Position numbers and translations under genes: made by a program. 64,000 nucleotides of DNA from Candidatus Moraniibacteriota bacterium. Its GTDB lineage: Bacteria; Patescibacteriota; Minisyncoccia; Moranbacterales; GCA-2747515. A model generated the notes under the pieces. That model was not told the origin of the DNA, searched no databases, and was given only the letters and a program-made list of their open reading frames with translations. The DNA lies in assembly GCA_046116545.1 (NCBI GenBank), contig CP175956.1, positions 1,089,734 through 1,153,733 on the forward strand, written 5' to 3'. Positions 524 to 47,100 of this stretch are shown here, one piece after another. Position 1 is the first letter of the stretch. Each line of letters begins with the position of its first letter.

Positions 524-549
524 AATATATTATACGGTTAATTCAGTAA

Positions 550-10700: not shown

Positions 10701-13700
10701 CAAATGCAACAGAAAGATTGTATTCATTGATATCATCACCCGTACTTCCAACAACAAACATCTTTGTTCCATCATTATTAAAAGTAATTCCTTGTGGTGC
10801 AGTTTCTTGTGCTACAACAGAAAAATTAGAATCGAATGTTATATTTTCACCAACAGTAAATCCTTCACTCACAGATTCAATTTTAATATTATCACTTGCA
10901 ACTATATCAAAATAACTGAATTCATCATCACCTAAGCCTATTGTATATTGTAAGACATCATCAGCAAGAACTCTCATAGAACCAGTTGCTAGATTTTCTG
11001 TATTTACTATAACTTGATAAAGACCTGTTTCTGTAATATTTTCAAATGCATTCCAAGTTTCAGCTGTTGTAAATATATGATTTATTCCTGAAGTTCCACC
11101 AGAACTCCCAGCAGCAGAAGAACTTATTGTTACAGTTTGTGTTCCTGGTGATTTTTTAACTATTGTTAGAGTTTGATCTCCTAATCCTGTTGTTTGATAT
11201 ACAGTATAATCATCTGTTACATTTTTTTGTGCGTATCCTGTTGCATCAACACTAACATCTATTCTTTTTAGATTTGGGTTTTGTGTATCAGATGTTGAAT
11301 AGAAAGTTGATGATAGATCAAAAGTTGTTTGATCTATTGCAAAGGATCCTGATGATTCCCAATCTGCATCAGATATTGATTCTAATGTTGTAGAGTTCAT
11401 TTGATTCATTACTCCACTTTCTACTGCTTTTGATATTGCACTATTTGCATTATCTTCTATGCCTACTGTACTCCAAGTATCTACGTTATCTCTGAAATAC
11501 CAAGTTCCATCAGTTCCTCCATGAACTGATGCTTCTTTACTTGCAATGTATCTCCATGCTGAACCAGTCCATACTTTGAAAGTATGTCTATTATTGAAAC
11601 TTACCCCGTAGAATATTGATTGAGAGTTTAGGTTTTCTAATACACTTACTGAGTTTATATCTGTCCAATTTGCGCTATCTAAACCATCTTGGTTTGTTAT
11701 TGTTGTTACGTATGCTCCTGTGTAGTTTCCTAGGGTTTTTTCGTAGAATTCCATTTCAGCCAGTCCAACATAACTAACACTATTACTGGCACTAATATTT
11801 ATTCTGTAATATCTATATGCTATATTATTTGTAAATCCACTATAATTTCTTTTTTCACCATCTAACCAACTCATTTCAGCTGATCGTGTATCCAATGCAG
11901 TCCATGTATTTGCATCATTACTTCCTTCAAATGTCCAGTCTTTCGGAGCCCAAGCTGTATTACTTCTTACAGAATACTCATAAACTATTGCCTCATTTCC
12001 TGAACCTAAATCATATTGAAGCCAGCCTGTTGAAATTCCACTTTGAGAAAGCCAAGATGTTGCATTATTGTCATCAAATCCGTAACTTGGTAGATAACTA
12101 GCACTATAAGTTGTACTCGAAGTAGCAGCCCCACCACTAGCCAAATCAGGACCAGTGCCTCCACCAGTATCAACTAAGTCAACTTGAAATTGAGTTATGT
12201 TTTCTTTTAAATCTTCTTGTGTATAATTATCTTCTGAATTGTAATTTATGTTTTGTATTTTATCAGTTTCTGTTTGTTCTTCTGTAATACTTACAATTGC
12301 TGAACCTGATACTGTTGTTGATTCTCCTTGTGCTAGAGTTACTTGAGTTTGAGTTACTCCACTTCCTGATGTTCCTGTTGATAATCCTCCCCATATAGTT
12401 CCATTACAAAACTCCATGACTTTTGAAGTGTCATTGTATCTCATTGCACCTTCTTTTGTTACGTCACAAGCTGATGCGTCATTATTGAGAGTTATACTTC
12501 CTCCTATAGCTAGATTGTTTCCATCGTATGTGAAGTTTGAGTTTTGAGTTATTGCATTTCCTGCACTATTTGTGAATTGTATTTGATTTGCACTTAGGCT
12601 TGCTGGTGTATCTGTTAGTCCTGTATATGTTGAAGTTCCTCCACTTGATGTTAGAGAGTTCCATACTGAACCATCGTATCCTTCTAGATCTGTTCCACTC
12701 CATCTTATCATTCCTGCTACTGCATTTGTACTTGTTCCAAATACTGCTGCTTTATCAAAGTTGAAAGCTTCGTTTATTGTATCGTAACTTATTATTCCTT
12801 CATTTCCGTTTTCTCCTATATGTAGAGAGTTTGGTCCTAGGTATAGGTCTCTGAATCTATTTGTACTACTTCCTAGGTCGTATGTATCATCTGCATCTGG
12901 TCCTATATGTCCTGCTACTTGTAGTTTGAAGTTTGTTGGACTTGTTGTTCCTATCCCTATATTTCCAGAATTTGAAATTCTCATTCTTTCACTACTGTTT
13001 GTTCCAAAAATCATATTTGTATTTTCGAAATTCCACAATTGTGCATTTTCTGAACCATCAATACCATAGATTGTACCATCAATATTTGTAGTTCCTGTAT
13101 CCGTATTTGTCATACTGATATTAATACCAGCTGTTGTTGATGACTTATTAAGATGTAGTTCTCTTGCAGGACTAGTTGTTCCTATTCCAACGTTGCCGGA
13201 AGTTATATAACTATCTCCTCCACTATCAAAGTAAACAGTTTTAACTGTACTACCATTGTATAATTCAAAAATTCCCGCCCCACCAGTAATATGTCGTCCT
13301 AAAAAGGCTCTCGTATTCGGTACCCCATCTACAATCCTTATTCCATCTCCAGCATTGGCATTAACATCCAACTTCGCTCCTGGAGATATCGTTCCTATTC
13401 CCACATCTCCATTATTCATTGTTAATGTCCTAAGCCAAGCATCATCAGTACTATTAGGTTGTGTAAATATAGCCTGATTTCTAAACAATATTTCCCTACC
13501 ATCACCATTAAAACCACTATTTGAATTTCCAGAAGGATCATATCCCATTGAAATAGTTACAGCATCTGTTCCATAAGTTGTGCCAGTAGAACCTAAAATC
13601 AGTGACTTGTATCCTGAACCATACCCAAATATACTTGGCTCCATTGCCTTTCTTGTCCCAACCTTTAAATTACCATTGATATCAAGTAACTCTAATGGAT

Positions 13701-29493: not shown

Positions 29494-32469
29494 TTATTTT
29501 TTAATTGCGATAACTACTTTTTCTCCATCAACTTTAAATTCATCTTCTAAATCTGAATCATTTAAAATTTCATTCTGCAAATTATTAGCTAATACTTCAT
29601 GCGCAATCACACCTTTATAATCTGCAAAAACATCATTAAAGCCACTGAAGCCTACTGATATTCTATCATCTAATTCATAATCAGCCTTCTTACGCATTTG
29701 TTGTATGTGTCGTATTATTTCACGAGCCTGACCTTCTTTTCTTAGCTCATCAGTTAATTTTATATTCAATTCGATTTTTACATCATTGATATCTCCCATA
29801 TTTTTCGCATTCTCATCAAATTCAAAATCATCAAAAATAATACTTTTAACGTTTAATTCTTCTTTGACAATATCAAGAAATTCTTCTGTTATTTGTAATT
29901 CCTCTTTCTTGATTTTTAATTCTGACAATGGCTGTCTTACTTTCATTTGAGTTCTTGCTCTCAACTTCAAACCTTCACTTATAATATCTCTTACAAATTG
30001 CATTTGTTCATTTAACTCTGTGTCAATACACATTTCATCACTAACTGGAAAATTAGCTAAATGTACACTTTCTTTATCAGAAAGATTTTTGTAAATCTCA
30101 TCCGCTAAAAATGGTGCGAATGGCGCAATAGTCTTTGACAGCTCTACTAATACATAATGTAGGGTTGCATAAGCTTCATTTTTATCACCATCATCCTCAC
30201 TTTTCCAAAATCTCTTGCGACTCCTACGAATATACCAATTTGATAAATCATCAACAAACGGTGCAAATTTTCTTGTTGCTTGCATTAAATGATAACTTTC
30301 CATTTCACTGTCTACATCCTTGATTAACTGATGTAACTTGGAGATAAGCCATTTATCTAACAGATTATTTACTTTTGGAACACCTTCATAGTTCACTTTC
30401 CAGCCATCCACATTAGCATACATCACAAAAAAACTATAACTCTGCCAAAGCATCCGAAAAGTCCCACGAGCAATCTCGGACAAATCTTTTTCGCTAAAAC
30501 TCAAATCATTAGCATTTACCACTGGTGACTGAGCAAGGTAAAATTTCAATGGATCAGCTCCATATTTTTCAACCATTTCCATTGGATCTGGATAGTTTTG
30601 TAATTTTTTAGACATCTTTTGTCCATCCTCTGCCAAAACAATTCCATTAGTAATAACATTTTTGAAAGCCTCTTTTTCAAAAATTCCACCCGCAATAACG
30701 TGCAGATAATAAAACCATGCCCTCGTTTGATCAATTCCCTCTGCAATAAAATCAGCTGGAAAATTATTTTCAAAAACCTCCTTATTTTCAAAAGGATAAT
30801 GCGCTTGACCATAAGGCATAGAGCCACTATCAAACCAAGTATCCAAGACATCTGGCACACGATGCATCTGCCCATCACATTTGCCACAATCAAAAGAAAT
30901 TTCATCAACAACGTGTTTGTGCAAATCATCAACCTCGACGCCACTAGCATCTTTCAGTTCAGCAATTGAACCAAAGACTTTTTTATCATCACATTTATTA
31001 CAAACCCAAATCGGCATGACACTCGCCCAAAATCGTTGACGCGAAATAGACCAATCACGACCACCTTCCAACCAATTGCCAAAGCGACCTTCTTTGAGAT
31101 GTTCTGGTGTCCAATTAATATTTTTAGCATTTTCTAGTAAATTTTCTTTAATTTTTGTAACTGCTACAAACCAAGATCCTGTTGCATAATTAATCAAAGG
31201 TGTATCACAACGCCAACAGTGTGGATAACTATGTTCATACTTTTCTTTGTGAAATAAAGTACCTTTACCTGCAAGATATTTAATCACTTCAATATCCGTA
31301 GACTGAGGATTTTCAATTGGCTTTACATTTAATCCTCCAATAGCCTCAACTCTTTCGTCCACCACGCCATTCAGAGTCAAATGTTGCACAAAAGGCAAAT
31401 CGTTTTCTTTACCAAGAGCCATATCATCCTCACCAAATGCCGGAGCAATATGCACAACACCAGTACCATCTTCCGTAGTCACAAAATCAGCCGCATAAAC
31501 TTGCCAACCATTTTCTCTATTTTCTAAGCTCTCATCACTAGCATAAGTATCCCAAAGAGATTTGTATTTCAAACCAACTAAATCAGAACCTTTAAGGTTT
31601 TCAATAATTTCAAATTCAGAATCATTCATAACATCCTCCAACCTAGTCTTTGCTAAAATAAATTGCACTAAATTGCCAGTTCCTTCATCTTTTTTTTGAA
31701 TCTTTACATATTCAACATCATTACCTACAGCTAATGCAACATTTCCCGGAAGTGTCCATGGAGTAGTTGTCCAAGCAAGAATAGAAGTTTTAGGATCGTC
31801 CAACAGATTAAATTCTGCAATCACCGATAAATCCTTCACATCTTTATAACCTTCACTTACTTCAGACTGTGAAAGGGTTGTCTCACAACGAGGACAAACA
31901 TGCATCGAACGATAACTGTAATAAATTAAATCCTTATCCCAAAGTTGTTTAAACGTCCACCAAACACTTTCCATAAAATCTTTATCCATTGTACGATAAG
32001 AGTCATCCATATCAGCCCAACGACCCAGACGATTAATGATTTTTTCCCATTCATCCGCATATTCCAAAACTTTAGAACGACAAAGATTATTAAATTTTTC
32101 AACTCCCAATTCCTCAATTTCTTTTTTTGTTTTACTGCCTAATTCTTTTTCTACAATATTTTCAATTGGCAATCCATGACAATCCCAACCCCATTTACGC
32201 GGAATGTATTTCCCCTTCATAGTCCAATAACGAGGAGTGACGTCTTTAATTACCGAAGCAACAATATGTCCATAATGAGGTAACCCAGTTGCAAAAGGAG
32301 GACCATCATAAAAACTATATTTATTACTATCATCTTTAGTTTTTCTATTTTCCATTGATTTGTGGAAAATATCATTCTCATTCCAAAATTTCAAAATATC
32401 CTCCTCAACTTTAGAAAGTTTTTTAGAAGAATCTACTGGGCTAAAATGTTGTTGTTTTTCGTTTGACAT
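29494..32469 (-). CDS. ileS: isoleucine--tRNA ligase
   Basis: 991 aa. HIGH motif 'GLPHYGHIVAS' and KMSKS motif 'KMSKK'. The long editing/CP1 insertion and C-terminal Zn-like Cys cluster are typical of IleS. Confidence 0.95.
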   Translation of the reverse strand: MSNEKQQHFSPVDSSKKLSKVEEDILKFWNENDIFHKSMENRKTKDDSNKYSFYDGPPFATGLPHYGHIVASVIKDVTPRYWTMKGKYIPRKWGWDCHGLPIENIVEKELGSKTKKEIEELGVEKFNNLCRSKVLEYADEWEKIINRLGRWADMDDSYRTMDKDFMESVWWTFKQLWDKDLIYYSYRSMHVCPRCETTLSQSEVSEGYKDVKDLSVIAEFNLLDDPKTSILAWTTTPWTLPGNVALAVGNDVEYVKIQKKDEGTGNLVQFILAKTRLEDVMNDSEFEIIENLKGSDLVGLKYKSLWDTYASDESLENRENGWQVYAADFVTTEDGTGVVHIAPAFGEDDMALGKENDLPFVQHLTLNGVVDERVEAIGGLNVKPIENPQSTDIEVIKYLAGKGTLFHKEKYEHSYPHCWRCDTPLINYATGSWFVAVTKIKENLLENAKNINWTPEHLKEGRFGNWLEGGRDWSISRQRFWASVMPIWVCNKCDDKKVFGSIAELKDASGVEVDDLHKHVVDEISFDCGKCDGQMHRVPDVLDTWFDSGSMPYGQAHYPFENKEVFENNFPADFIAEGIDQTRAWFYYLHVIAGGIFEKEAFKNVITNGIVLAEDGQKMSKKLQNYPDPMEMVEKYGADPLKFYLAQSPVVNANDLSFSEKDLSEIARGTFRMLWQSYSFFVMYANVDGWKVNYEGVPKVNNLLDKWLISKLHQLIKDVDSEMESYHLMQATRKFAPFVDDLSNWYIRRSRKRFWKSEDDGDKNEAYATLHYVLVELSKTIAPFAPFLADEIYKNLSDKESVHLANFPVSDEMCIDTELNEQMQFVRDIISEGLKLRARTQMKVRQPLSELKIKKEELQITEEFLDIVKEELNVKSIIFDDFEFDENAKNMGDINDVKIELNIKLTDELRKEGQAREIIRHIQQMRKKADYELDDRISVGFSGFNDVFADYKGVIAHEVLANNLQNEILNDSDLEDEFKVDGEKVVIAIKK

Positions 32470-32477
32470 ATAATTTT

Positions 32478-32750
32478 ATAATTAAAAATAAAAAAATCCT
32501 CAAAAACAAATGTTTTAAGGACGAATATAATCCGCGATACCACCTTAATTTAAAAACTAAATTCAGTCTTCACTCTTAATTACAGCTATTACAGGCTTAC
32601 CTGTTGAGTTCTACTTCCTACTTTTACATAGAGTTCTTCTCACATCCCCTTATTTAAAATAAGTTCAGTATTGATATTACTGTCAAAGGATTTTATATCT
32701 TTAGACTACAACAAAAATCAACAAATTGCAATAAACTAAATACTTATATA
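32478..32750 (-). promoter_or_regulatory. T-box leader (tRNA-sensing riboswitch) upstream of ileS
   Basis: Minus-strand sequence AATTAAGGTGGTATCGCGG (plus coordinates 32531-32550, read on the minus strand) matches the T-box consensus AATTAGGGTGGTACCGCGG at 17 of 19 positions. About 12 nt downstream is a 9-bp terminator hairpin (UCCUUAAAA...UUUUUGAGGA) plus a U7 run, just 5' of the ileS ATG. Stem I and the specifier codon were not resolved. Confidence 0.6.
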
Positions 32751-32782
32751 AAATCTACCCTACATTTAAAAGCAGGGTAGAT
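32745..32782 (-). terminator. rho-independent terminator of the 2790-aa gene
   Basis: Perfect 9-bp stem ATCTACCCT / AGGGTAGAT (32753-32761 and 32774-32782) with a 12-nt loop. UUUUAUAUAA follows on the minus strand, 22 nt after the stop. T-runs flank both sides, so it may work in both directions. Confidence 0.65.
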
Positions 32783-32803
32783 TTTTAAAATATTGATCTA
32801 ATT

Positions 32804-35800
32804 TCATTCAGAGCCTTCTACAATAAACCAATCAAACTTTATCATATTCGTGATAGCATCTTTCACTTTAACAATGAATCCAACTCCATCTTGAATTTCT
32901 GATACTGATACTAATTGTTCAACATCTCCATGAGGTGTTACAAATATATGACTATTATTTGTTACAGCTTCTGTGGCAACAAATATACTTTGACCATCAC
33001 TTTCACTTTCTAAATCAACTACACAATCATCATCAGCCTCATCATAACTTGTATCTTCTGGACAAATTACTGATTTACCTACAATAGAATCATCTTCTTG
33101 ACTTTCTACTGTCAGCTTATTTATTTCAATTTCTTGTGCAACAAGCTTCTTAACACTTAGTAATCCTTCTAATGTCAAATCTATGACATCTGCAATAATT
33201 TCATTCCCATCTCCATCAACTGTTGATTGTGTTAATACTCCATTTTCAACAAATATTAACTTATCTACATCCAGTGCTAATACTCTCGTATCAATATTAG
33301 TTAATATACTTAGACTTGCTTGCAAGTCATCTATTCTACTATTTATCTCAGGAATCACTTGTTGTGTTAGTGTATTTGCTTCATCTCGTAATTCTAACAC
33401 ATCATCACCAACTTGATTTATGGTATTATAAGATGTTTCAAATTGATCGTCTGTTGAACTTTGCAAATCAACTATATTTGTATCCGTTTTTAATGTAAGA
33501 CTTTTAATACTTGTGTCTATTTCTTGCATTTTATCTGGTGTTGGTAAATCAAGAATATTTAATGAATCAATTTGTGGTATCTCAACCCCTGTATTTTTAT
33601 CAGTTATATATACCAATTTTTCTCCTGTAAGCTTTTCTATAAATCTCATAGCTTTTGTCATATCCACATTGATAATTTTTTCATCTCTTTCTGAACGATA
33701 TGCCCATGCCATATCTTCACTTGCGCCTGCTGGAATATCTGAGAAATTATGTGGTGAAAGAGTTGTTACATTTCCAGCTTCATCACGCACTCGGAGCTCA
33801 TGACTACCAGCATCCTCAACTGCAAACAGTTGAATACCATCTGTAATACTAGCTGTCGGTGCTACTGAACTTGAAATAGTTAATAAATTATTTGCATCAG
33901 TCCCATAATTTTCAGAACCAATTGCCATATTTCCACCATCATAATAAATACCCTCAAAGTTCTCTGTCCACAAAGTATCGCCGTCAGGATTCTCTGTGTT
34001 AACACAATAAAGCACATTCACATTTGTTGGACGTGTTTCACTTCCACCTGTTGCCTGCGTAGTCATTGTTGGCTTCCAATTATATACACCTTCTTTTTTA
34101 TAACCTGTAGTAGTTCCAGCTGCATCATTTTCTGCATCATGTAATTGGAAATCATGATCATGACTTGCAAATTCATCATCTTGAGTAGTTCCTACTGCAT
34201 CACCTGTTGTACCATCACCTCTATCACCACGACTAGCTGCATCTGGATCCAGACCAGCACCATGATCCCAACCACGTAAGAATCGTCCACGATAATCTGG
34301 TACATTAAACGTGCTAGAACCATCACCATCACCATACATATCACCAAGTACTGCATAAAGATCTGGATATGCTGTTCGTGAAGCTTCAGCACCATCTGCC
34401 TCAAGCCAACCTGGTGGACACACTTCTGTAGCATATGCATTCACAGTTCCAGCTGACAATGAATCCGTTGTCCCATGACTACCTATATCCTTTTTTGTAA
34501 TTGCAACACCAGCAACCACATCTCCTGCTCCAGCTGCTGTAAACACAACTCTCAAACTTGATTCATACTTTATATGTGGCAAATTAATAAACGTGTTATC
34601 ATCACCGACTTCATCTTCAAAAAGTCCAACATCTAAACTTTGTAATACACCATCAATTTCAATTGTCACCTCAGATATTGAAGCACCCTCAATATGACCT
34701 GATACTAAATAACCAGATTCATTAGAAATATCAATTAATGTCATTATTCCAACATCAGATTGAACTCTATGTTGTGTAATTCCTCCATTAAGATCATCTG
34801 CCGTTAAATAATCAGATGTTGTACTTCCAATAATAATACCTCCACCGCCACTTCCTGTGCTCAATGCTCCCCAAACTGTACCGTTACAAAACTCCATCGC
34901 CATTTGTGTCGTATTGTATCTCATTGAACCTTCCTTACTTGAATCACAAGCATCAAAATCAGAACCAATTCTTATACTACCTTCTATATCCAAGTTTGTA
35001 CCATCAAACATTAGATTGGTACCTGCAACAATTGCATTTCCAATACTATTAGTATACGGGATTGAACCTGCAATATAGCTTGATGGTGTATCTGTGAGGT
35101 CTAGAAATGATAAATCTGGAGATGTGAATGATTTCCATTGTGTACCATTATATCCTTCAAAATCAGTTCCAGTCCATCGTATATTACCTGCAATTGTATT
35201 TGTTGTTGAACCAAGTCTAATAGCACCATCCACATCCAATGCTTCTTGTGGTGTATTTGTACCAATTCCAACATTTCCACTTGTGTAATATATATCAGAA
35301 CCATTTTGTGTCCACATGCCCAATCCTGTTGTCGGTTGGTCTCCGGCTTCGTTTATTGTTTTTACGTATTGTGGTGAATATGCATTAGTTGCTGTGCTAT
35401 TACCTAACTGTCCTTGTCCATTATATCCCCAACATTGCACACGTCCGCCAGTAGTCTTAACACATGTATGTGTCAGACCTCCATAACCACCCATAGCAAT
35501 TTGAGTTGCGCTGTCTATATTTGAAACCTTAACTGGAGAATATTGATCTGTTGTATTTCCATTTCCAACCTGTCCATTTGCATTATATCCCCAACAACTC
35601 ACCTCTCCACTATTATGTAGTGCACATACTGTTCCATATAAATTATAACCACCTGCAATAATAATGTCTTTAACATCTGTAAGTCCTGGATCTACTGGTG
35701 AATTACTATTTGTTGTTGTCCCTATACCTAATTGACCTCGTCCATTATGTCCCCATGACCTCACTGTTCCATCTTGCAATACTACAAATGTTACATTTCC

Positions 35801-38800
35801 ATTATCTCCACCAATAGCAATATCAAATGCATTTGTAATTCCTAATACTTGAGAAGGTGCCGTCCTATTTGTTGTATCACCTAAACCAAGTGCTCCATCA
35901 TCATTATTTCCCCAACACCATACAGTATTATCATTTTTAATTGCACATCTATGGACCTGTCCAGTGTAATCACCTTGAGCAACCATCTTTGATACATTAT
36001 TTATTGTAATAGGTGTAGGTGTATTTCTTGCTGTAGTTGTACCATCCCCAAGTTCTCCTTGAGCATTTGCTCCCCAACATTGAACTGAACCATCATTGAA
36101 TTGTGCACAATATGAAGCTGTATTTCCTCCACCACCTGATATATCAGCCACATTTCCTGTGATTATTTGTACTGGTGAAGTTTGCTGTGTTGTATTTCCA
36201 TTTCCCACTTGACCTGAAGCATTATATCCCCAACAATATACATTTCCACTTGTGTCTAATGCACATGCTGAAGCTGCTACATTATGTAAATTCCTTGATG
36301 TAGCAATTTTTGAAATATTTTCCAATGCTCCCACTCGCACAGGAGTTGGTCGCTGTGTTGTTGTACCATCACCAAGTGCACCATGACCATTATATCCCCA
36401 AGCATACAAATGACCATTTTCAAGTATTGCATATGTTATTTGTCTATTTGTACTAATTGAGCTCACATTTTCTGGCAATACCACTTCAACTGGTAAGTAT
36501 TTATTTGATATCATACTATCATCACCCAATTCTCCATTTACGTCACGTCCCCAACATTGTACTTTTTTATCTTCCATTATTGCACATGAAATACCTGCAT
36601 TACTGTTTCCCTCCCACAACTTCTCAACCTGATTGATAGTAGTTTCACCACCAGCTGCACCAACTGATATACAAACAGGATCTCCATTTGCATCAAATCC
36701 TCTTAATGCTTCTCCTATTGGACATTGTGTTGTTATGTTAGATGCTAATATATTTCCTGAAGTATATATATCTCCTCCTACTACTGATAGTTTATGTGTT
36801 GGGTTTGTTGTTCCCAATCCTAAGCTTCCACTTTCTGTAAGTGTTAATGTTTGTGTTCCATTTAGTGATATTGCAAAGTTATTATCTACTTGTTCTCTTA
36901 GAGTCCATAGATTTGAATTTGCTCCACTATCTGCTAGTTGTAATATATTTGTTTGTGTTGTTCCGTTTATATCTAATTCGTAATTTGGTGTTGTTGTATT
37001 TATTCCTACATTTCCACTTGTATAATATATATCTGATCCGTTTGCTGTCCACAGTCCACCACCAACTACAGGATTGTCATCATATGTTTCATTAACAGTT
37101 TTCACATATTGAGGAGTTGTCCTCATAGTTTCTGTTCCATTTCCAAGTTGTCCATATGTGTTATCTCCCCAACATTTCATCCTACCATCTATCAATGTTA
37201 CACAAGCATGAGTTGGTCCTGCAAAGCCTCCCATTGCAATATCCTTTGCATATTCAACACCCTCAACAAGACTAGGTGTTGTTTGTGGATTTACAGTTGT
37301 ACCGTTTCCTACTTGACCATTACCATTATATCCCCAACAACTCACTTCACCACTATTATGCAGTGCACAAACAGTTCCATACAAACTATATCCACCAGCA
37401 ATTACCACTTTACTCACATCTGTCAAACCTGCATCCACAGGTGTACTACTATTTGTAGTTGTACCAATGCCCAGCTGTCCTCCACCATTATAACCAGTTG
37501 ATCGTACTGTTCCATCTTGCAATACCACATGTGTTGAAGCACCATTATCACCACCAACTGCAATATCAACTGCATTTGTAATTCCAAGCATTTGTGTTGG
37601 CACATGACGATCTGCTGTATCTCCTACTCCCAAAGCACCATTACCATTATCTCCCCAACACCATACAGTACCATCATTTTTAATTGCACACTTATGACCA
37701 TCTTCACCATAACCACCTTGAGCCACAATTTTTGAAACATTTGACAAACTAATTTGCGTAGGAATATTTCTGTCAATAATAGTACCATCACCAACTTGAC
37801 CTTGAGAATTTCTTCCCCAACACCACACAGATCCATCTGTTTTTGTAGCACAAAATGAACTATATTGACTTCCACCTCCTGAGATACCTGTTACATCTGC
37901 TGCAATAATTTGAACTGGTGAAGTTTGTTGTGTTGTTGTACCATTTCCTACTTGTCCATATCCATTATATCCCCAACAATATACAGCGCCCACATCATTT
38001 AATGCACATACAGTGCCATGATTTTGATATAAGTTTTCTGAAGTTGCTATTTCTGTAATATCTTCCAACGTTCCTATTCTTACTGGAATATGTCTCACTG
38101 TAGTTGTTCCATCTCCCAATTCACCTTGTGCGTTATACCCCCAACCATATACTTGTCCATTTTCTAAAATTGCATATGTTGAATGTTTGTTTGTAATAAC
38201 TTCTTCTACATCACCTGGTAAATTTACTATTTCCGGAAATGGTTTGTCTGCTGCATTCACACCTGTCCCAACTTCACCACTATCATCATGTCCCCAACAC
38301 TGTACAGTTTTATCTTCCATTACTACACATGAAGTTCCATCATTTGATTGTCCTTTCCATATTTTTTCTGCTTTATTTATAGCCAATTCACCACCAGCAG
38401 CTCCAACTGATATACAAACAGGATCTCCATTTGCATCAAATCCTCTTAATGCTTCTCCTATTGGACATTGTGTTGTTATGTTAGATGCTAATATATTTCC
38501 TGAAGTATATATATCTCCTCCTACTACTGATAGTTTATGTGTTGGGTTTGTTGTTCCCAATCCTAAGCTTCCACTTTCTGTAAGTGTTAATGTTTGTGTT
38601 CCATTTAGTGATATTGCAAAGTTATTATCTACTTGTTCTCTTAGAGTCCATAGATTTGAATTTGCTCCACTATCTGCTAGTTGTAATATATTTGTTTGTG
38701 TTGTTCCGTTTATATCTAATTCGTAATTTGGTGTTGTTGTATTTATTCCTACATTTCCACTTGTATAATATATATCTGATCCGTTTGCTGTCCACAATCC

Positions 38801-41176
38801 TGATCCTGCTAGTGGTTGGTCTCCTGCTTCGTTTATTGTTTTTACGTATTGGGGGGTGTATCTATGTAATATATCTCCTTGACCTAATTGACCGTAACCA
38901 TTGTACCCCCAGCACATCATTCTTCCATCTGTTTTCTTGACACAATAATGTGGACCCGTTGTAACTCCCGCAACCGCAAGATCTTGCACATCTTCCAATC
39001 CTGCAACTTGCAATGGCGTTGTTTGATCTGTTATCGTACCATTTCCTACCTGACCATATGCATTATACCCAAAACATGAAACTGTTCCATCTGTATGTAA
39101 TGCACAGGTTGTAGAATGCACATATCTATTTGTAGTATCATACGCAGAACCACCTGGTATAATCTTTGATACATTTGTAAGTCCTGAATCTACTGGAGAA
39201 ACTTGATTAGTTGTTGTTCCATCACCTAATTGACCATGGTTATTATATCCCCAACCTCTTACCGTACCATCTTGCAATGTTACAAATGTTGAGCCTCTTA
39301 TACCTCCAGTTGCTTTAATACTTGTAGCCGTTGTAATCCCTGATACCTGTGTAGGTGCATTTCTTTGTGTTGTATCACCTACTCCTAATTGACCATAACC
39401 ATTATATCCCCAACACCATACTGTTCCATCAGTCTTAATGGCACATTTATATCCTTGACCAGGATAACTCCCATCAATGACCATATCTGATACATTTGCA
39501 ATATTTATTTGGATTGGATTACTCCTATTTGTTGTGGTTCCATCACCTAATTGACCGTAACCATTGTAACCCCAACACCATACTGTTCCATCTATTTTCG
39601 CAGCACAAAATGATGCGTAAGCAGCATTACCACCGTAAATATTATTCACACCTGTTAGCACTTGTACTGGTGAAGTTGCATTTGTTGTTGTTCCATCTCC
39701 TACTTGTCCATAAGCATTGTATCCCCAACAACTAACATTTCCACTACTATCTATTGCACAAGCAGTTGTTGTCTCTTGCATCTGCATTCTTGCTGTAACT
39801 ATCGTCTCTACATTTTCAAGTGTACCTACTCTTACCGGAGTATGTCTCGTTGTAGTTGTTCCATCACCTATTTGCCCCTCATTATTACGTCCCCAAGCAT
39901 ATGCATGACCATTTTCTAATATTGCATAATTGATATTCTTTGTAGACACTACACTTTCTACATCTCCAGGTAACACAACTTCTTGAGGAAATAATTTATT
40001 TGCAATGTCTGCTCCTGTACCTAGCTGTCCGTCATCATCACGTCCCCAACATTGCACACCCTTATCCTCCATCACCACACATGTTGAATAATCTGTATAT
40101 TGACCTTCCCATAATTTCTCAACTTTATTTATAGTTGAAATATCCGCTCCATTATCAGTCAATGATAGCCAATTAGAACCATCATATCCTTCAAAATCAG
40201 CACCTGTCCAACGAATTGTGCCTGCGTTTGTATTTGTTGTATTCCCAATATTTAATGCTCCCGCTATAGTAAGAGATTCCAGCGTACTATTAGTACCTAT
40301 TCCTAATTGATTATTTATATCATCCCAAAAAAGTGCTGTATTATCATCCAATACTCCAGCAGCATTAGTAAATAAAATCGAACCTGATGTATAGCTTCCT
40401 ATAGTATCTGTTAATGATAGGAAATCTGATGCTCCACCACTTCCACCCGAAGTAAGTGAAAGCCAACTTGAACCATCATATCCTTCAAAATCAGTACCAG
40501 TCCACCTAATTGTTCCAGCATTTGAATTAACAGTATTTCCAAAATTGACACCACCGTTAACTGTTAATGTCTCCGTTGTCGTAGATGTACCTATCCCAAC
40601 TCTGTTATTTGCAGTATCTACAAATAAATCATTTGAATTAACTGCAAAATCACCACCAATCTCTAAGCTACCAACTTTTGTTTGATTTGTGGATCCTGTA
40701 TTTAAATAATAATCTTCAGTTTGTCCATTTAGCCTATGTGCATTTAACGCAAAGCCTGTAGGAGTCACCTTTCTTCTAGGAGTCATCTCTGGATTTGATC
40801 CTATTTTTACTCCCAAATAATAATTTTGAGAAAAATCAATATCAATCAGATTATCACCCACTTCTCCCAATATAGTATTGAATATCCCATTTGTTACTGT
40901 AATTGATTTTGCTGTTGGAGTTCCGCATGTTCCTCTACTAGTCCAAAGGCAATTTCCTCCTGTATCCGCATCATATATTGTTAATGTGAAATCATAATCT
41001 CCATCTGATACTGCTACGTTACTAGTATCTGTTAGTTTTCCATGATATGTTAATTCTTTATCTGGAGTCGCAATTACATTTATTGATGTAATTAAAATAA
41101 AAAACAACAAAAAGAAGCTTCCTAATGCATAATTTAATTTACTCATCGTATTTGAAAGTTTTTGTTTTACACCCAT
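32804..41176 (-). CDS. giant secreted/surface protein (2790 aa): N-terminal module shared with the 3250-aa paralog, three tandem RCC1-like propeller modules, a phage-tail-collar domain, and the shared C-terminal module
   Basis: A signal peptide is present. RCC1 repeats 'WGYNGYGQLGDGTTTNRSNPIQI' occur more than 20 times in three ~581-aa super-modules. The tail-collar signature is 'CPPGWLEADGAEASRTAYPDLYAVLGDMYGDGDGSSTFNVPDYRGRFLRGWDHG'. The C-terminal ~470 aa are ~80% identical to the 4735-14487 product and end '...MIKFDWFIVEGSE'. Confidence 0.85.
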   Translation of the reverse strand: MGVKQKLSNTMSKLNYALGSFFLLFFILITSINVIATPDKELTYHGKLTDTSNVAVSDGDYDFTLTIYDADTGGNCLWTSRGTCGTPTAKSITVTNGIFNTILGEVGDNLIDIDFSQNYYLGVKIGSNPEMTPRRKVTPTGFALNAHRLNGQTEDYYLNTGSTNQTKVGSLEIGGDFAVNSNDLFVDTANNRVGIGTSTTTETLTVNGGVNFGNTVNSNAGTIRWTGTDFEGYDGSSWLSLTSGGSGGASDFLSLTDTIGSYTSGSILFTNAAGVLDDNTALFWDDINNQLGIGTNSTLESLTIAGALNIGNTTNTNAGTIRWTGADFEGYDGSNWLSLTDNGADISTINKVEKLWEGQYTDYSTCVVMEDKGVQCWGRDDDGQLGTGADIANKLFPQEVVLPGDVESVVSTKNINYAILENGHAYAWGRNNEGQIGDGTTTTRHTPVRVGTLENVETIVTARMQMQETTTACAIDSSGNVSCWGYNAYGQVGDGTTTNATSPVQVLTGVNNIYGGNAAYASFCAAKIDGTVWCWGYNGYGQLGDGTTTNRSNPIQINIANVSDMVIDGSYPGQGYKCAIKTDGTVWCWGYNGYGQLGVGDTTQRNAPTQVSGITTATSIKATGGIRGSTFVTLQDGTVRGWGYNNHGQLGDGTTTNQVSPVDSGLTNVSKIIPGGSAYDTTNRYVHSTTCALHTDGTVSCFGYNAYGQVGNGTITDQTTPLQVAGLEDVQDLAVAGVTTGPHYCVKKTDGRMMCWGYNGYGQLGQGDILHRYTPQYVKTINEAGDQPLAGSGLWTANGSDIYYTSGNVGINTTTPNYELDINGTTQTNILQLADSGANSNLWTLREQVDNNFAISLNGTQTLTLTESGSLGLGTTNPTHKLSVVGGDIYTSGNILASNITTQCPIGEALRGFDANGDPVCISVGAAGGELAINKAEKIWKGQSNDGTSCVVMEDKTVQCWGHDDSGEVGTGVNAADKPFPEIVNLPGDVEEVITNKHSTYAILENGQVYGWGYNAQGELGDGTTTVRHIPVRIGTLEDITEIATSENLYQNHGTVCALNDVGAVYCWGYNGYGQVGNGTTTQQTSPVQIIAADVTGISGGGSQYSSFCATKTDGSVWCWGRNSQGQVGDGTIIDRNIPTQISLSNVSKIVAQGGYGEDGHKCAIKNDGTVWCWGDNGNGALGVGDTADRHVPTQMLGITNAVDIAVGGDNGASTHVVLQDGTVRSTGYNGGGQLGIGTTTNSSTPVDAGLTDVSKVVIAGGYSLYGTVCALHNSGEVSCWGYNGNGQVGNGTTVNPQTTPSLVEGVEYAKDIAMGGFAGPTHACVTLIDGRMKCWGDNTYGQLGNGTETMRTTPQYVKTVNETYDDNPVVGGGLWTANGSDIYYTSGNVGINTTTPNYELDINGTTQTNILQLADSGANSNLWTLREQVDNNFAISLNGTQTLTLTESGSLGLGTTNPTHKLSVVGGDIYTSGNILASNITTQCPIGEALRGFDANGDPVCISVGAAGGETTINQVEKLWEGNSNAGISCAIMEDKKVQCWGRDVNGELGDDSMISNKYLPVEVVLPENVSSISTNRQITYAILENGHLYAWGYNGHGALGDGTTTQRPTPVRVGALENISKIATSRNLHNVAASACALDTSGNVYCWGYNASGQVGNGNTTQQTSPVQIITGNVADISGGGGNTASYCAQFNDGSVQCWGANAQGELGDGTTTARNTPTPITINNVSKMVAQGDYTGQVHRCAIKNDNTVWCWGNNDDGALGLGDTTNRTAPSQVLGITNAFDIAIGGDNGNVTFVVLQDGTVRSWGHNGRGQLGIGTTTNSNSPVDPGLTDVKDIIIAGGYNLYGTVCALHNSGEVSCWGYNANGQVGNGNTTDQYSPVKVSNIDSATQIAMGGYGGLTHTCVKTTGGRVQCWGYNGQGQLGNSTATNAYSPQYVKTINEAGDQPTTGLGMWTQNGSDIYYTSGNVGIGTNTPQEALDVDGAIRLGSTTNTIAGNIRWTGTDFEGYNGTQWKSFTSPDLSFLDLTDTPSSYIAGSIPYTNSIGNAIVAGTNLMFDGTNLDIEGSIRIGSDFDACDSSKEGSMRYNTTQMAMEFCNGTVWGALSTGSGGGGIIIGSTTSDYLTADDLNGGITQHRVQSDVGIMTLIDISNESGYLVSGHIEGASISEVTIEIDGVLQSLDVGLFEDEVGDDNTFINLPHIKYESSLRVVFTAAGAGDVVAGVAITKKDIGSHGTTDSLSAGTVNAYATEVCPPGWLEADGAEASRTAYPDLYAVLGDMYGDGDGSSTFNVPDYRGRFLRGWDHGAGLDPDAASRGDRGDGTTGDAVGTTQDDEFASHDHDFQLHDAENDAAGTTTGYKKEGVYNWKPTMTTQATGGSETRPTNVNVLYCVNTENPDGDTLWTENFEGIYYDGGNMAIGSENYGTDANNLLTISSSVAPTASITDGIQLFAVEDAGSHELRVRDEAGNVTTLSPHNFSDIPAGASEDMAWAYRSERDEKIINVDMTKAMRFIEKLTGEKLVYITDKNTGVEIPQIDSLNILDLPTPDKMQEIDTSIKSLTLKTDTNIVDLQSSTDDQFETSYNTINQVGDDVLELRDEANTLTQQVIPEINSRIDDLQASLSILTNIDTRVLALDVDKLIFVENGVLTQSTVDGDGNEIIADVIDLTLEGLLSVKKLVAQEIEINKLTVESQEDDSIVGKSVICPEDTSYDEADDDCVVDLESESDGQSIFVATEAVTNNSHIFVTPHGDVEQLVSVSEIQDGVGFIVKVKDAITNMIKFDWFIVEGSE
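36660..37050 (-). repeat. 391-bp 100%-identical direct repeat, copy 2 (the linker between RCC1 modules 2 and 3)
   Basis: Identical by eye to 38403-38793 (offset 1743 bp = 581 codons). It encodes 'GGLWTANGSDIYYTSGNVGINTTTPNYELDING...CISVGAAGGE' in both copies. Confidence 0.9.
38403..38793 (-). repeat. 391-bp 100%-identical direct repeat, copy 1 (the linker between RCC1 modules 1 and 2)
   Basis: See copy 2. Flanks diverge immediately outside: 'tgcacc' vs 'agctcc' on one side, 'cacagtcc' vs 'cacaatcc' on the other. Confidence 0.9.
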
Positions 41177-42428: not shown

Positions 42429-44060
42429 TTACATATTATCTGGAGCACTTACTCCTATTGTATTTAATGTTTCTGCTATTACAATTTTAGTTGCTTTCAC
42501 CAACTTCAACCTTGCTAATGATAATGATTTATTATCCTCGTCAATAACCTTGCATTCAGTATAAAATGAATGAAACTTCTCCGCTAATCTAATCGCGTAA
42601 TGTGGTAATTGATGTATGTGATATGTATTTGCAATATCCTCAATCATCTCAGAAAAAACTTCTAATTCTCTCATTAATTCTTTTTCCTTTTTATGTGTCA
42701 ATTCATTTATTGAACATTTTTCTATATCTTCATTCGTAAAAGATGAATTTAGACCTTTTTCTAAAATACCTGCAAGTCTTGCGTGAGCATATTGAACATA
42801 ATACACTGGATTCTTACTAGACTTTTCTTTTGCTAATTCTAAATCAAAATCCATGTGTGAATCAGATGATTGCATCAAAAAGAAAAACCTAGCAACATCA
42901 TGACCAACTTCTTCAATTAATTCATCAATGTAAATAACATTTCCAGCTCGTTTACTCATGCGTACTTCTTTTCCATCTTTCATAAGCCTTACCAGCTGTA
43001 CAATAATGAATTTTATTTCACCCTCAAATCCTAATGCTCTAGCAGCAGCCTCAAACCTCACAATATATCCGTGATGATCTGCTCCCCACACCTCAATTAT
43101 ATGATTAAAGCCTCTGTCCATTTTATTCAAAATATATCCACAATCACTTGCAAAATATGTTTTTACTCCATCACCCTTTATTAAAACTCTATCCTTATCA
43201 TCACCAAATTTTGTAGTTTTCAACCAAATTGCACCTTCACTCTCAAATACCAATTCTTTTTGTTTTAATTTATCAATCGCTTTTTCCACATAATCAGTTT
43301 CCACAATATCCCTTTTTTCAGAAATCCATGAATCAAAGTCTATATGCATCAAATCAGATGTCATTGTCTTTAAATATGTTTCCACGATAATATCTGCAGC
43401 CCATTGTCCAACCTCCATGGCATCCTTTTTATCACTTATATCTGACTCTTCTATTTGACCATTTAGCTTATCTATATAATCACCAGCATATACAGCATGT
43501 TCATCTTTAAGAACACTATGACCTAATGTTATCACCTGTTCACCTGCATCATTAATATAATACTCACTTGTTACATCAGCTCCATTTTTTTTCAAGACAT
43601 TTCCCATAGCATCACCCAAAAAACCACCTCTACCATTCCCTAAATGTATTGGTCCTGTAGGATTTGCTGATATAAACTCATTATTTATCTTAAAATTCTT
43701 TTTTGAATTATTACTACCATAACTATTACCTTCTTTTATTATATTTTCAACAACATCTTGTAAGTGTTTATATGTCACACTTATATTTATAAATCCTGGA
43801 GCAGCAACTGCACAATTATCGATTTTATCACCGCTAAGTACTTCCATGATATCTGCTAATTCATTCGCAATTTCAATTGGTGCTTTTTTTAATTCTTTTG
43901 ACAATTGAAATGCAACATTAGTCATCCAATCACCATGTGTAAAATCCTTTGGTCTTTCAACTATAATTTCAGGTATATCAAAGCCACTCCAAATATTATC
44001 CTTTTGGAGTTTTTTTATAGACTTTTCAATTAATTCTTCAATTATTTTTTTCATAAACAT
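42429..44060 (-). CDS. argS: arginine--tRNA ligase
   Basis: 543 aa. Class I HIGH-like 'PTGPIHLGNGRGG', KMSK 'RMSKRAGN', and a C-terminal DALR anticodon-binding region. Confidence 0.9.
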   Translation of the reverse strand: MFMKKIIEELIEKSIKKLQKDNIWSGFDIPEIIVERPKDFTHGDWMTNVAFQLSKELKKAPIEIANELADIMEVLSGDKIDNCAVAAPGFINISVTYKHLQDVVENIIKEGNSYGSNNSKKNFKINNEFISANPTGPIHLGNGRGGFLGDAMGNVLKKNGADVTSEYYINDAGEQVITLGHSVLKDEHAVYAGDYIDKLNGQIEESDISDKKDAMEVGQWAADIIVETYLKTMTSDLMHIDFDSWISEKRDIVETDYVEKAIDKLKQKELVFESEGAIWLKTTKFGDDKDRVLIKGDGVKTYFASDCGYILNKMDRGFNHIIEVWGADHHGYIVRFEAAARALGFEGEIKFIIVQLVRLMKDGKEVRMSKRAGNVIYIDELIEEVGHDVARFFFLMQSSDSHMDFDLELAKEKSSKNPVYYVQYAHARLAGILEKGLNSSFTNEDIEKCSINELTHKKEKELMRELEVFSEMIEDIANTYHIHQLPHYAIRLAEKFHSFYTECKVIDEDNKSLSLARLKLVKATKIVIAETLNTIGVSAPDNM

Positions 44061-44184: not shown

Positions 44185-47100
44185 CTAGGCAAGACCTTTC
44201 CTAACATTGATATTACCTTGTTTTTCAAAAGGTTGTCCTGATATTGGTTGTCCTTTTACTTTCATATTGTAATCTCCATTTTCTGCTAGAAGATAATATC
44301 TTCCTATTGCATCTGTTACAGCGAATCCTGTTTTTTGATTTGTTTCTTTGTTATGGAGTGATACTACTGCAAAAGGTACTGGGTTTTTATCATGTTTTGT
44401 TACTGTTCCATATTTCTTTTGTTTTATGAAGTTATCATAAATGAACAGTGCCATATATAGAGATAGGAATATGTAATTTAGAGTTGATGGGTACAGGTAA
44501 GTTATTGCTGCTGTAGCTATAAATCCTACGTAAAAAAGAATTATGAAGCTCCATTTCTTTATTGCTGAGAAAGTTCCTGTATAGCTTTTTACTTTTTTAT
44601 CTGCATATTCATTCCAGTTTATATTCAGGGCATTCATTGCAATATTTGTTGCTAGAACTTTGTTTTCTTCTATTGTTAATGCTTCTCCTGTATATACATC
44701 TCCGTATAGTGAATCATGGTTATGAGTTAGGTCTTCTTCATATTTTGGTTTTTCTGGATGTATCAGATATGTTCCATTTGTTGTTAAGAATCCAAATCTT
44801 CCATGTTGATCTGAGTATGTTGTTTCTATTTCAAAGCCCTCTATATCAGTTAGAACTAGTTTTACTCCAGGCAATGGTTGTTTTGTTGTTTGTTCAAACA
44901 CTGTTCCCCAGTTTTGTTCATTTTTTCTTCTAGCTAATATTCCTAAGAAAGGCATTATGAATATATCTGTTGCTGCCATTGGGATTGTTGTGAATAGAGG
45001 GATTGTTGTTGAAGCTAGAGCTATTAGTGTTCCTGTTGTTAATCCTACTACTGCAGCTGCTTGATATTGTTTTTCTTTTTGTTGTTCCTTTGTTGGTTCT
45101 TGTACAGGAGGATCTGTTACTTCTTGTGCTGGTGGTTCAGGATCACTTCCTCCTTGTACTACTGGAGGAGTTACTATTTCTTTTTCTTCTCTACTAGCGC
45201 TACATGTTATTTCTTCATCATCATTTGTACATGTCCATGAAGATGATTCTCCTTGATTTGGAAATTCTGGTATATTTAATACTTCTCCTGTTTGACAGAA
45301 GTCTCCTGTGAATTCTGATTCATCTTCTGTATATGTTTTACTTGATTCTCCACATTCTGGATTTACTATTTCTTTTGTAGGTCCTAGAGTTGTTTTTTCT
45401 GTTGTTGCTGTTTTAGAATGTGGACAGTATTCGTAGCTATCATCTTCTTGATATGATACTTTGAACCTATATTGGGTATCTTCTTCTAGGTTATCTATCT
45501 CTAGAGTTACTCTTCCACTATCAGATGGTTTATCCGTTAGTTTTATTGTTTCTTTTTCATTTGTATATAGATTCTCTACTTCTACTTTGAATTTTATTTT
45601 CTCATCTGCGTATTCTTCATCTACTTCTACTCTTAGAGTTACTGAATCTTTTGTTATTTCTTTTATATTGTCGGTTTTGCATTCTTTTTCTTCTTCTGGA
45701 TCCTCTGGGTCTATTGGTGGGGTTACTGGAGAATCACATGATGGGTCTGGTTTTGTTTTGTATGTGAAGTCTGATCCTGTGTTGTCAGGAACTTGAGTCT
45801 CTGTTGTTAATACTGAAATCTCATTAACTTGTGCATCAATCGAAGTTGCAATATTTGGAATTCTTTCTATTTTTAATACTTCCAATATTGTACCATTAGC
45901 AGTTTGAAATCGTACTGAGCCTAAATTTCTATCCATACCTGTTAAATCTATCTCCCCACCTGTAGAACTAATAACTTGTGTTTGCCACATTTCAAGATTT
46001 GTTCCTGCTGCATTCCATTGCCAAATTATCACATTTACATCATCACCATCATGATTTAACTCAAATCGCAATTTATCAGATGCTGTTATTACATCAGGAG
46101 TTATTAATTCTAAACTAAATTCATATGTTTTTTGTCCAATATATTTAACTCCATCCCATGTACCGTTAAGTGGGCTTGCACCAGCTCCTGCTGGATGAAA
46201 TGCATTCCAATGTGATATATCTGTAATGTCAGTCCAACTTGGCAAAACTATATCATGATTAAATACGTATTTTATATATCTTCCAAACTCATCAATATCA
46301 ATTGATTCCTCCCATGAATCAGGTGTATTGATATCCCAATCTGAAATTAATGCACTACCCATGTTATTTACATCATCTGAAATATATATATCTATTTTAG
46401 GCAAATCATCACTACTACTGTCTATATATGCACGCATTTTTTGAATTTGTTTTGACTCACTCATATCATATATTGCATAGGCAGCCTCAGTGTCATAAGT
46501 ATATACATCACCTGTTACCACATCATTATTAATGGTATTATCTGCACTTGGCCAATTTGTACTGACCTCATATACTGATTGTGGTTGACTCCATTCTGTA
46601 GTTACTTGTTCTTCATCAATCATTTTTATATCAGTAACATTACAGTCTTTTTTATCTGAATCTGGCATTAGCACATACTCCCATGTAACTTGATTATTAT
46701 TTGAATACAAAAATGAAGTTGTGTCTGAATGTGTACTTTCTTCTGAACCTACTTCATAACACTCACACTCTAGAATTGTTTTAATAACTGTATTATCACC
46801 TGGTGTTGGTGGCATTATACTTTGAGACTCATATTCAACACGAACACCATCCAGCACTGGCACTGAACCTTTGTATAAAATTGCTTTCCATCTTAGATTA
46901 TCGCCTTTTATATCAAAAATTAATTCTTCACCACTATTAACTTGTATCCATGTAGCACCTCCATCAATTGAAAGATAATATTCTATCCTTGATTCTCCTT
47001 CTAATTCTTCATCCGCTATTAGAGTTGCTTTTATTATATCTGCAATACTTCCATTTATTTTATCTGACTGCACTACTGCTGGAGATATAATCTCTGTTGG

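Follow-up and report, generated by a model that had tools for sequence, protein, structure and literature searches.

The isoleucyl-tRNA synthetase gene ileS that lies on the minus strand of a 64,000-nt stretch of bacterial DNA (referred to below as the window, to which all positions relate unless another locus is named) is preceded by a leader that in all likelihood is a T-box riboswitch. To judge from its sequence, this leader would respond to tRNA-Ile and attenuate transcription of ileS through a decoding domain with an ultrashort Stem I, a design resembling that of the Class III T-boxes. The leader contains the sequence and structure elements of such a device, its helices covary among relatives, its antiterminator and terminator helices exclude each other, the gene that it precedes encodes a type-2 enzyme and has no Shine-Dalgarno (SD) sequence, and its host is a member of the Candidate Phyla Radiation (CPR)/Patescibacteria. 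Attenuation of ileS by tRNA-Ile had been proposed in an initial annotation of this DNA; the AUC specifier, the T-box core and the two mutually exclusive, covarying helices described in the following sections support this proposal, and it is from these features that we infer the function of the leader.

The T-box core and its score with the Rfam model

The T-box sequence named in the initial annotation (AAUUAAGGUGGUAUCGCGG) was located on the minus strand at positions 32550-32532. Its core, AAGGUGGUAUCGCG (32546-32533, minus strand), has an expected number of chance occurrences of zero; searched for as AAGGTGGTANCGCG, it occurs a single time in the 64 kb and was matched in none of 100 dinucleotide shuffles. 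The core is thus unique in the window, and both it and the hairpin with seven U residues (U7) that had been placed directly 3' of it, ahead of ileS, were found.

A different outcome was obtained with the covariance model of the T-box family in Rfam (RF00230), which cmscan had been expected to recover from this region. A default scan of the window returned no Rfam family because the leader scores 46.5 bits with RF00230, a value under the gathering score of 93. At relaxed thresholds, no Rfam family other than RF00230 came below E=0.05 anywhere in the window; its match, which is sub-threshold and skips Stem I, has an E-value of 4.6e-7 (4.4e-9 when a 600-nt region is scanned). The low score results from the ultrashort Stem I: the match begins at 32654 and leaves Stem I wholly outside, and 10 nt stand in for 89 Stem I positions of the model. 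While the 5' half of the leader was not aligned, the 3' half, comprising Stem III, the T-box and the antiterminator, was aligned very well; here, AAGG-UGGUAUC-GCGGA...UUCGU-CCUU occupies model positions 184-219 with posterior probabilities near 1. Folding of the whole leader as a single sequence was uninformative (z = -0.77).

A decoding domain built on an ultrashort Stem I

Among 80 related loci, 20 carry a homologous leader in front of ileS, and in these relatives its parts follow each other from 5' to 3' in the order A-rich tract, AUC hairpin, Stem II, pseudoknot, Stem III, antiterminator, and hairpin with U-run. The ultrashort Stem I of the window leader (32666-32685, minus strand, as are all further elements of the leader; 32682-32666 when counted from the helix) consists of U-GA, a 5-bp helix CAGUA/UACUG, a 7-nt apical loop AUAUCAA (32671-32677) and AA on the 3' side, and tandem G.A / A.A pairs flank the helix. 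Positions 3-5 of the loop (32673-32675) spell the isoleucine codon AUC, which is followed by the purine A and is invariant in two MAFFT alignments: alignment A1, which comprises 11 decoding domains, and alignment A2, which comprises leaders with a K-turn (kink-turn)-type Stem I and was put to qualitative use only since about one-third of its rows are out of register. Across the relatives, the loop reads NUAUCA, NAAUCA, CCAUCA or GCAUCA, with AUC followed by a purine throughout. The Stem I hairpin is present in 21 of 21 genome-derived leaders and, among the metagenome matches listed, in all 27 leaders situated before type-2 IleS. The AUC specifier expected by the initial annotation is therefore present, but its setting is another one: it resides not in the internal loop of a long Stem I but in the apical loop of an ultrashort one, and a long Stem I with internal Specifier Loop, AG bulge and a distal loop forming the motif of two interdigitated T-loops (IDTM) was not found in the window leader.

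Overlapping triplets in the loop AUAUCAA could instead offer UAU (Tyr), UCA (Ser) or AUA (Ile-2), so that the leader would serve as a T-box for another tRNA, and a search for a tRNA-Ile gene with a matching anticodon found none in the window or in 29 related loci. We give this possibility next to no credence. Only AUC and UCA are constant among the loops of the relatives, ileS is the target gene in every case, a purine stands after AUC as is customary, and the UGGU of the antiterminator bulge implies A73 in the tRNA. Bacterial tRNA-Ser has G73, while A73 is the established discriminator base of bacterial tRNA-Ile, with which the bulge UGGU agrees.

Stem I forms one arm of a three-way junction that RNAfold predicts from the single window sequence. 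The junction is closed by a helix, P0, that corresponds to a C-helix (canonical helix) and is made up of the 5' strand AUCCUU (32686-32691) and the 3' strand GGGGAU (32644-32649), the former pairing with 32649-32644; RNAfold predicts P0 independently of the covariation that supports it. Compensatory changes affect three of its six pairs in the 11 relatives, in which P0 varies in length from 5 to 7 bp and occurs in the versions AUCCUU/GGGGAU (window), AUUCUC/GAGAAU, AACCUU/AAGGUU and ACCUUUU/AAAAGGU, and a conserved AAAA stands just 5' of its 5' strand. The third (T) helix is an extra linker hairpin, CUUAUU-UUA-AAUAAG (32649-32663), predicted by RNAfold between Stem I and P0, where it is inserted in the non-bulged strand; every group-A relative and locus L013 possess such a hairpin, with unrelated sequences.

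Downstream of the junction follows Stem II (32604-32643), with a lower helix (G)UGAG/CUCA(A), a variable upper hairpin and the S-turn strands AAGAA (32638-32634) and AGUAGAA (32615-32609). Compensatory changes are seen in five of five pairs of the lower helix, and the AAGAA...UAGA motif with its GAA/AGUA S-turn is kept in all members. The adjoining Stem IIA/B pseudoknot (32583-32603) is a 21-nt element, CAGGUAAGCCUGUAAUAGCUG, with an F-box-like CCUGUAA; across the relatives it recurs as the 21-nt element CGGGUAAGCCCGUAAUAGCNG. Its IIA pair 2 covaries between GC and AU, and its IIB pairs covary as AGC/GCU in most members, AUGU/ACAU in L023 and GAUAU/AUAUC in L001. Stem III, GAAGACU-GAAUUU-AGUUUUU (32552-32571), was located through the RF00230 alignment and stands after a conserved AAGAG purine tract.

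Stem III of the relatives ranges from 20 to more than 100 nt. It is swollen by short tandem repeats from the 20 nt present in the window to 60-110 nt in L012, L013, L011, L079, L005, L006 and L010; AAGAAGCU, for instance, is repeated four times in Stem III of L012 and L013 (about 2670-2750 in L012). Such an expansion may lengthen the interval that passes before the terminator is transcribed.

We scored the helices P0, Stem I, lower Stem II, IIA and the IIB pseudoknot in alignment A1. Of the cells, 94.9% are paired, compared with 39-46% in six slid controls, and 16 of the 23 pairs show compensatory changes, with covariation in five of six pairs in Stem I. In none of 500 shuffles did the paired fraction, the covariation score or the count of compensated pairs come up to the observed value. 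From this alignment, we derived a covariance model (R1) that has a single match in the window (32694-32581, 101.5 bits) and recovers 10 leaders outside its training set, each of them directly before ileS; two of these had escaped a regular-expression search. R1 scores below about 40 bits do not separate ultrashort from canonical T-boxes.

These data also bear on the notion that the leader is a decaying or inactive T-box remnant, whose hairpin and U-run would be a constitutive attenuator or a leftover. Such a state would go along with an RF00230 score far under the gathering score, with the reduced genomes of CPR bacteria and with a weak terminator. It is very improbable in our view since the architecture is kept and every helix carries compensatory changes across IleS proteins that are 37-78% identical, and since neither AUC nor the UGG of the bulge varies. 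Furthermore, the seemingly missing portion of the T-box is replaced by a conserved and covarying three-way junction; hence, we are dealing with a remodelled design and not with erosion.

Class III T-boxes possess a short Stem I without the elbow-binding IDTM platform, present their specifier in an apical loop of 5-6 nt, and rely on Stem II and the pseudoknot (PMC10482949, PMC7583486). Like the Class III leaders of Nocardia farcinica, Mycobacterium tuberculosis and M. smegmatis (PDB 6UFM, 6UFG), that of the window stands before an ileS gene for a type-2 isoleucyl-tRNA synthetase (IleRS), has a short Stem I whose apical loop displays AUC and a purine and which carries neither an AG bulge nor a distal-loop platform, and contains a Stem II with a GAA/AGUA S-turn, a 21-nt IIA/B pseudoknot with an F-box, a Stem III and, between helices A1 and A2, a bulge of the type UGGN. 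It differs from them in its expression platform, a hairpin and U7 terminator instead of an SD sequestrator, with no SD sequence; in its CPR/Patescibacteria host and a G+C content of the leader of 26%, while the known range of the class is the phylum Actinobacteria; in the elaboration, within the subgroup of the window, of the K-turn into a three-way junction that includes an additional hairpin; and in its apical loop of 7 nt. With the canonical Class I T-boxes (RF00230; Bacillus subtilis tyrS), the window leader shares the T-box sequence, the competition between an antiterminator and a terminator with U-tract, an aminoacyl-tRNA synthetase gene as its target, an S-turn in Stem II, the IIA/B pseudoknot, Stem III and an A-rich stretch 5' of Stem I. 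However, it is devoid of the approximately 90-nt Stem I of this class, whose internal Specifier Loop and AG bulge are accompanied by distal interdigitated T-loops for stacking on the elbow of the tRNA.

The predicted secondary structure of the junction at the base of Stem I resembles that by which a k-junction is defined (PMC10573300). The elements known from the k-junctions of thiamine pyrophosphate (TPP) riboswitches and of DUF-3268 (PMC4005666, PMC10573300) are present: a C-helix (P0), a U-rich loop, tandem G.A / A.(A/G) pairs, an NC-helix (non-canonical helix; Stem I) and, across from the loop, a third helix that is inserted in the non-bulged strand, a resemblance that exists at the level of the sequence. 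The tandem GA...(A/G)A beside Stem I is retained in the subgroup of the window. A point that speaks against the assignment is the 2b.2n pair, which is A.A in the window and A.G in L003 and L023; in addition, the length of the loop depends on the extent of P0, and a sister subgroup (L005, L006, L010, L075) carries AGUA/GAA, a loop-E-like arrangement, at this place. We regard the window junction as a probable k-junction. Reported hosts of k-junctions are TPP riboswitches, the ribosome and DUF-3268, and T-boxes are not among them (PMC10573300).

A canonical K-turn signature is found at this site in the group-B relatives, and L013 has the same hairpin insertion as the window within an otherwise canonical K-turn. 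The K-turn layout of group B (L012, L079), GC-GUU-GA...GA-GC, is that of the high-GC, Actinobacteria-like loci L136, L186 and L199; in its general form (GC - 3-nt bulge - GA - stem - NNAUCA - stem - GA - GC), it is common to the CPR group B and to the high-GC loci L136, L186, L199 and L125.

Competing helices and the mode of ileS control

The antiterminator of the window leader (32517-32546) is composed of helix A1 (AAGG/CCUU), the 7-nt bulge UGGUAUC (32542-32536) and helix A2 (GCGGA/UUCGU), with a predicted stability of -2.8 kcal/mol. The terminator (32484-32521) consists of the hairpin UCCUUAAAAC-AUUU-GUUUUUGAGGA (32521-32497), which has 10 pairs, one bulged U and a predicted stability of -6.6 kcal/mol, and of the tract U7-A-U5 (32496-32484). 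Since the strand GUCCUU is common to both structures, the two helices are mutually exclusive, and the alternative antiterminator/terminator pairing that the initial annotation had called for is present. Covariation backs both helices. In a further alignment, A3, of 14 discriminator domains, 99.1% of the antiterminator cells are paired (29-54% in slid controls) and 87.1% of the terminator cells (27-57% in slid controls); five of the 10 terminator pairs are compensated, mostly distal ones on which the antiterminator imposes no constraint. The same arrangement, in which the 3' strand of helix A1 doubles as the 5' arm of the terminator and is followed by U5-7, exists in 18 of 18 relatives processed. 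A simple terminator scanner missed both the hairpin of the leader and that of the gene upstream because its rules for loop size and G+C pairs exclude them.

Variations on this theme occur among the relatives. In L146, L018, L129 and L195, the arm on the side of the U-run appears to have its partner in the 5' side of Stem III instead of the 3' strand of helix A1; the resulting long-range terminator helix would enclose the whole discriminator. The bulge reads UGGC instead of UGGU in L001 (2903-2914), the closest relative of the window with an IleS that is 78% identical, and in L100, L105, L127, L130, L190 and L197; this substitution implies either G73 on the cognate tRNA or a tolerated mismatch.

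Ultrashort T-boxes have been described as translational, Actinobacterial and all positioned on ileS (PMC7583486), and those with an ultrashort Stem I that have been studied experimentally are all translational. The window leader might accordingly be viewed as a translational T-box akin to the Actinobacterial Class III, with a hairpin that sequesters the ribosome-loading region of ileS without any termination. Some of the relatives fit this view: the high-GC loci L136, L139, L177 and L186 have an SD sequence without a U-run, the U-run abuts the AUG in L168 and L082, and AGGAG is part of the hairpin arm in L168. For the window, we nonetheless consider a purely translational mode quite unlikely. 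The ileS gene has no SD sequence in the 25 nt upstream of it (uuuuuauuuuuaauuauaaaauuau), and the open reading frames (ORFs) of the window show no SD enrichment. A 4-nt SD core was found at -22 to -5 in three of 28 ORFs, which is below the background of 16.6% in random 18-mers, and the remark in the initial annotation that SD sequences are almost absent hence holds in the window. The hairpin is separated from the AUG by 27 nt that begin with U7, a feature characteristic of intrinsic terminators. Furthermore, in several relatives (L005, L006, L010, L075, L166), the hairpin and U-run are situated 700-900 nt upstream of ileS, ahead of a gene of the TrpR family; with a terminator at this distance, transcriptional control fits, while occlusion of the start site does not. 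We therefore favor transcriptional control, in which the expression platform of the window leader would be an intrinsic terminator acting on the CPR RNA polymerase.

The TrpR-family protein encoded between the T-box terminator and ileS has 175-181 amino acids (PF01371, 64.5 bits; YerC-like; L005, 2351-2896; L075, 2190-2717; also in L006, L010 and L166), and the riboswitch of this subgroup would control a trpR-like plus ileS operon. The direct contact of U-run and AUG in L168 and L082, together with the position of AGGAG inside the 3' arm of the L168 terminator, suggests that transcription and translation could be controlled jointly at these two loci. A terminator and an SD sequence are both present in L086, L129, L175, L191 and L195.

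Several points weigh against transcription attenuation by a leader of this type. To our knowledge, intrinsic termination is uncharacterized in CPR bacteria. The terminator hairpin of the window is the weakest of the set, and its -6.6 kcal/mol with just three G-C pairs compares with a mean of -19.5 +/- 7.9 kcal/mol in TBDB. The RF00230 threshold is missed by a wide margin, as stated above. Neither the window nor 29 related loci contain a tRNA-Ile gene, so that the anticodon and discriminator presumed for the cognate tRNA are those established for bacterial tRNA-Ile in general. A TATAAA sequence, common to several close relatives (UAUAAAAUCC), stands directly 5' of P0 (32692-32697, minus strand), and if it were a -10 box, transcription would start within P0. 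Finally, transcriptional T-boxes have been stated to "generally require" a long Stem I, whose contact with the tRNA elbow hastens capture of the tRNA before the terminator is made, and the ultrashort Stem I has been linked to slower and reversible translational control (PMC7583486, section 6.2).

TATAAA (32697-32692) was set aside as a -10 box, given that the transcript would then begin inside the covarying P0. TTGACA (32686-32681) was likewise rejected as a -35 box, as the relatives show at this position the RNA-level pattern CCUUUGAC, that is, a P0 strand plus the tandem GA. A scan with consensus promoter sequences yielded nothing useful. The A-rich tract ahead of Stem I is also a feature of the Rfam consensus.

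Under tRNA-Ile-responsive attenuation, the nascent leader would fold into the three-way junction, one arm of which, the 5-bp hairpin, would offer AUC-A in its 7-nt apical loop. The Stem II S-turn, placed by the IIA/B pseudoknot, would dock by this loop and thereby create a groove in which the anticodon stem-loop of tRNA-Ile(GAU) is held; the geometry of docking would, by analogy, be that of the N. farcinica and M. tuberculosis structures. The tRNA bound by the leader in this way would make no elbow contact because the distal Stem I platform is absent. When the tRNA is uncharged, its 3' ACCA would pair with the UGGU of the bulge and stabilize the weak antiterminator, and RNA polymerase would enter ileS. 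With charged tRNA, or in its absence, GUCCUU would pair downstream to form the terminator, and transcription would stop at the U7 tract, 14-27 nt before the AUG.

Host, locus and distribution of the leader

The regulated gene (29494-32469, minus strand; AUG at 32469) encodes an IleS protein of 991 amino acids (TIGR00392, 936 bits). It is a type-2 enzyme: its best matches in the PDB are type-2/eukaryote-like IleRS proteins (794-723 bits), compared with 318 bits for the type-1 enzyme of S. aureus (1ffy). A search with the IleS protein, restricted to one genome per species, matched CPR/Patescibacteria assemblies exclusively. The nearest relative is encoded by a metagenome-assembled genome (MAG) of Candidatus Moraniibacteriota (78% identity), and MAGs of the Parcubacteria group come next. 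By this sequence relationship, the host of the window is a CPR/Patescibacteria bacterium near Ca. Moraniibacteriota. The initial annotation had taken the T-box as a hint at the Firmicutes, and this hint was misleading because all relatives of the IleS protein belong to CPR/Patescibacteria. Several records of CPR-type MAGs (L002, L004, L008, L011, L024, L030 and others) are labeled Bdellovibrionales, Gammaproteobacteria or Bacteroidales; these labels are probably wrong and stem from automated taxonomy.

To survey metagenomes, we used a pattern that spans the S-turn and the IIA/B pseudoknot and obtained at least 119 stretches. The pattern does not discriminate between classes: roughly half the matches listed are canonical T-boxes with a long Stem I, whose downstream genes encode products approximately 25% identical to the window IleS. 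Among the matches listed that lie at type-2 IleS loci (at least 37% identity), 27 of 27 have the ultrashort Stem I with apical AUC. Pooling of the window, the genome-derived leaders and the metagenome matches listed gave at least 47 ultrashort leaders before type-2 IleS, and the following counts refer to this set. A hairpin with at least five U residues is present in 39 of the 47, mostly at 22-41% G+C and without an SD sequence; the negative score of L013, one of the other eight, is an artefact of its start codon. A clear SD sequence without a U-run, which corresponds to the published translational design, characterizes five high-GC loci (0.55-0.70), and a few loci possess a terminator and an SD sequence together.

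The Rfam T-box threshold was reached by none of 17 related CPR leaders tested, and the translational ileS model of TBDB is restricted to Actinobacteria; surveys based on Rfam as well as TBDB will consequently have missed these leaders. A set of 17 CPR ileS loci that are without the element contain no canonical T-box either. In the library searched, full-text queries combining T-box with Patescibacteria or Candidate Phyla Radiation retrieved no paper, although Sherwood et al. (2015) may list ultrashort leaders with terminators.

Directly upstream of the leader lies the gene for a protein of 2790 amino acids (stop codon UGA at 32806-32804), and the terminator that the initial annotation had assigned to it is real. 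It is an intrinsic-terminator-like hairpin, AAAAAUCUACCCUGC-loop-GUAGGGUAGAUUUU, at 32750-32785 (minus strand), for which RNAfold predicts a 14-bp stem within a local fold of -21.7 kcal/mol in total. This hairpin is outside the riboswitch and sets the upstream limit of the leader; its proximity might make the control of read-through tighter, as the initial annotation proposed. The argS gene in the same window (42429-44060, minus strand; TIGR00456, 395 bits) has no T-box. All ORFs of at least 150 codons in the window (1-64000) are on the minus strand; three of them are giant (4735-14487, 3250 amino acids; 32804-41176, 2790 amino acids; 44185-49821, 1878 amino acids). The G+C content across the window is 30-38%, and the GC skew has strongly negative values over its whole length, from -0.18 to -0.34. 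In L019, a Moraniibacteriota MAG, a transfer-messenger RNA gene (373-781, minus strand; RF00023, 103.6 bits) is positioned about 2 kb upstream of the ileS leader.

What sets the leader apart is an unusual combination: a CPR host, a Class III-like decoding domain that does without the tRNA elbow and is joined to a terminator, a probable k-junction, and a whole group of relatives that escapes standard annotation. A wider interpretation, for which we see about even chances, is that the leader represents a widespread T-box clade of CPR/Patescibacteria (Moraniibacteriota and related Parcubacteria) that standard annotation has missed, and that reads tRNA-Ile solely via the anticodon groove formed by Stem I and Stem II, yet acts co-transcriptionally through an intrinsic terminator. 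The Class III module would then travel with type-2 ileS in both CPR bacteria and Actinobacteria, be it through ancient ancestry or through transfer. Its expression platform would be swapped according to the host, with a terminator where SD sequences are not used and an SD sequestrator in high-GC users of SD sequences, and the K-turn would have become a k-junction in the subgroup of the window.

If this is true, an elbow-binding platform would be no general requirement for transcriptional T-boxes, and the approximately 40 natural leaders that combine an ultrashort Stem I with a hairpin and U-run make the kinetic argument for such a platform directly testable. The association of the decoding module with type-2 IleRS in two very different phyla is relevant to the question of how T-boxes arose and spread. 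For the ultra-small and mostly uncultivated CPR cells, in which few regulators have been recognized, a conserved tRNA-sensing switch on an essential synthetase gene would provide a concrete regulatory element.

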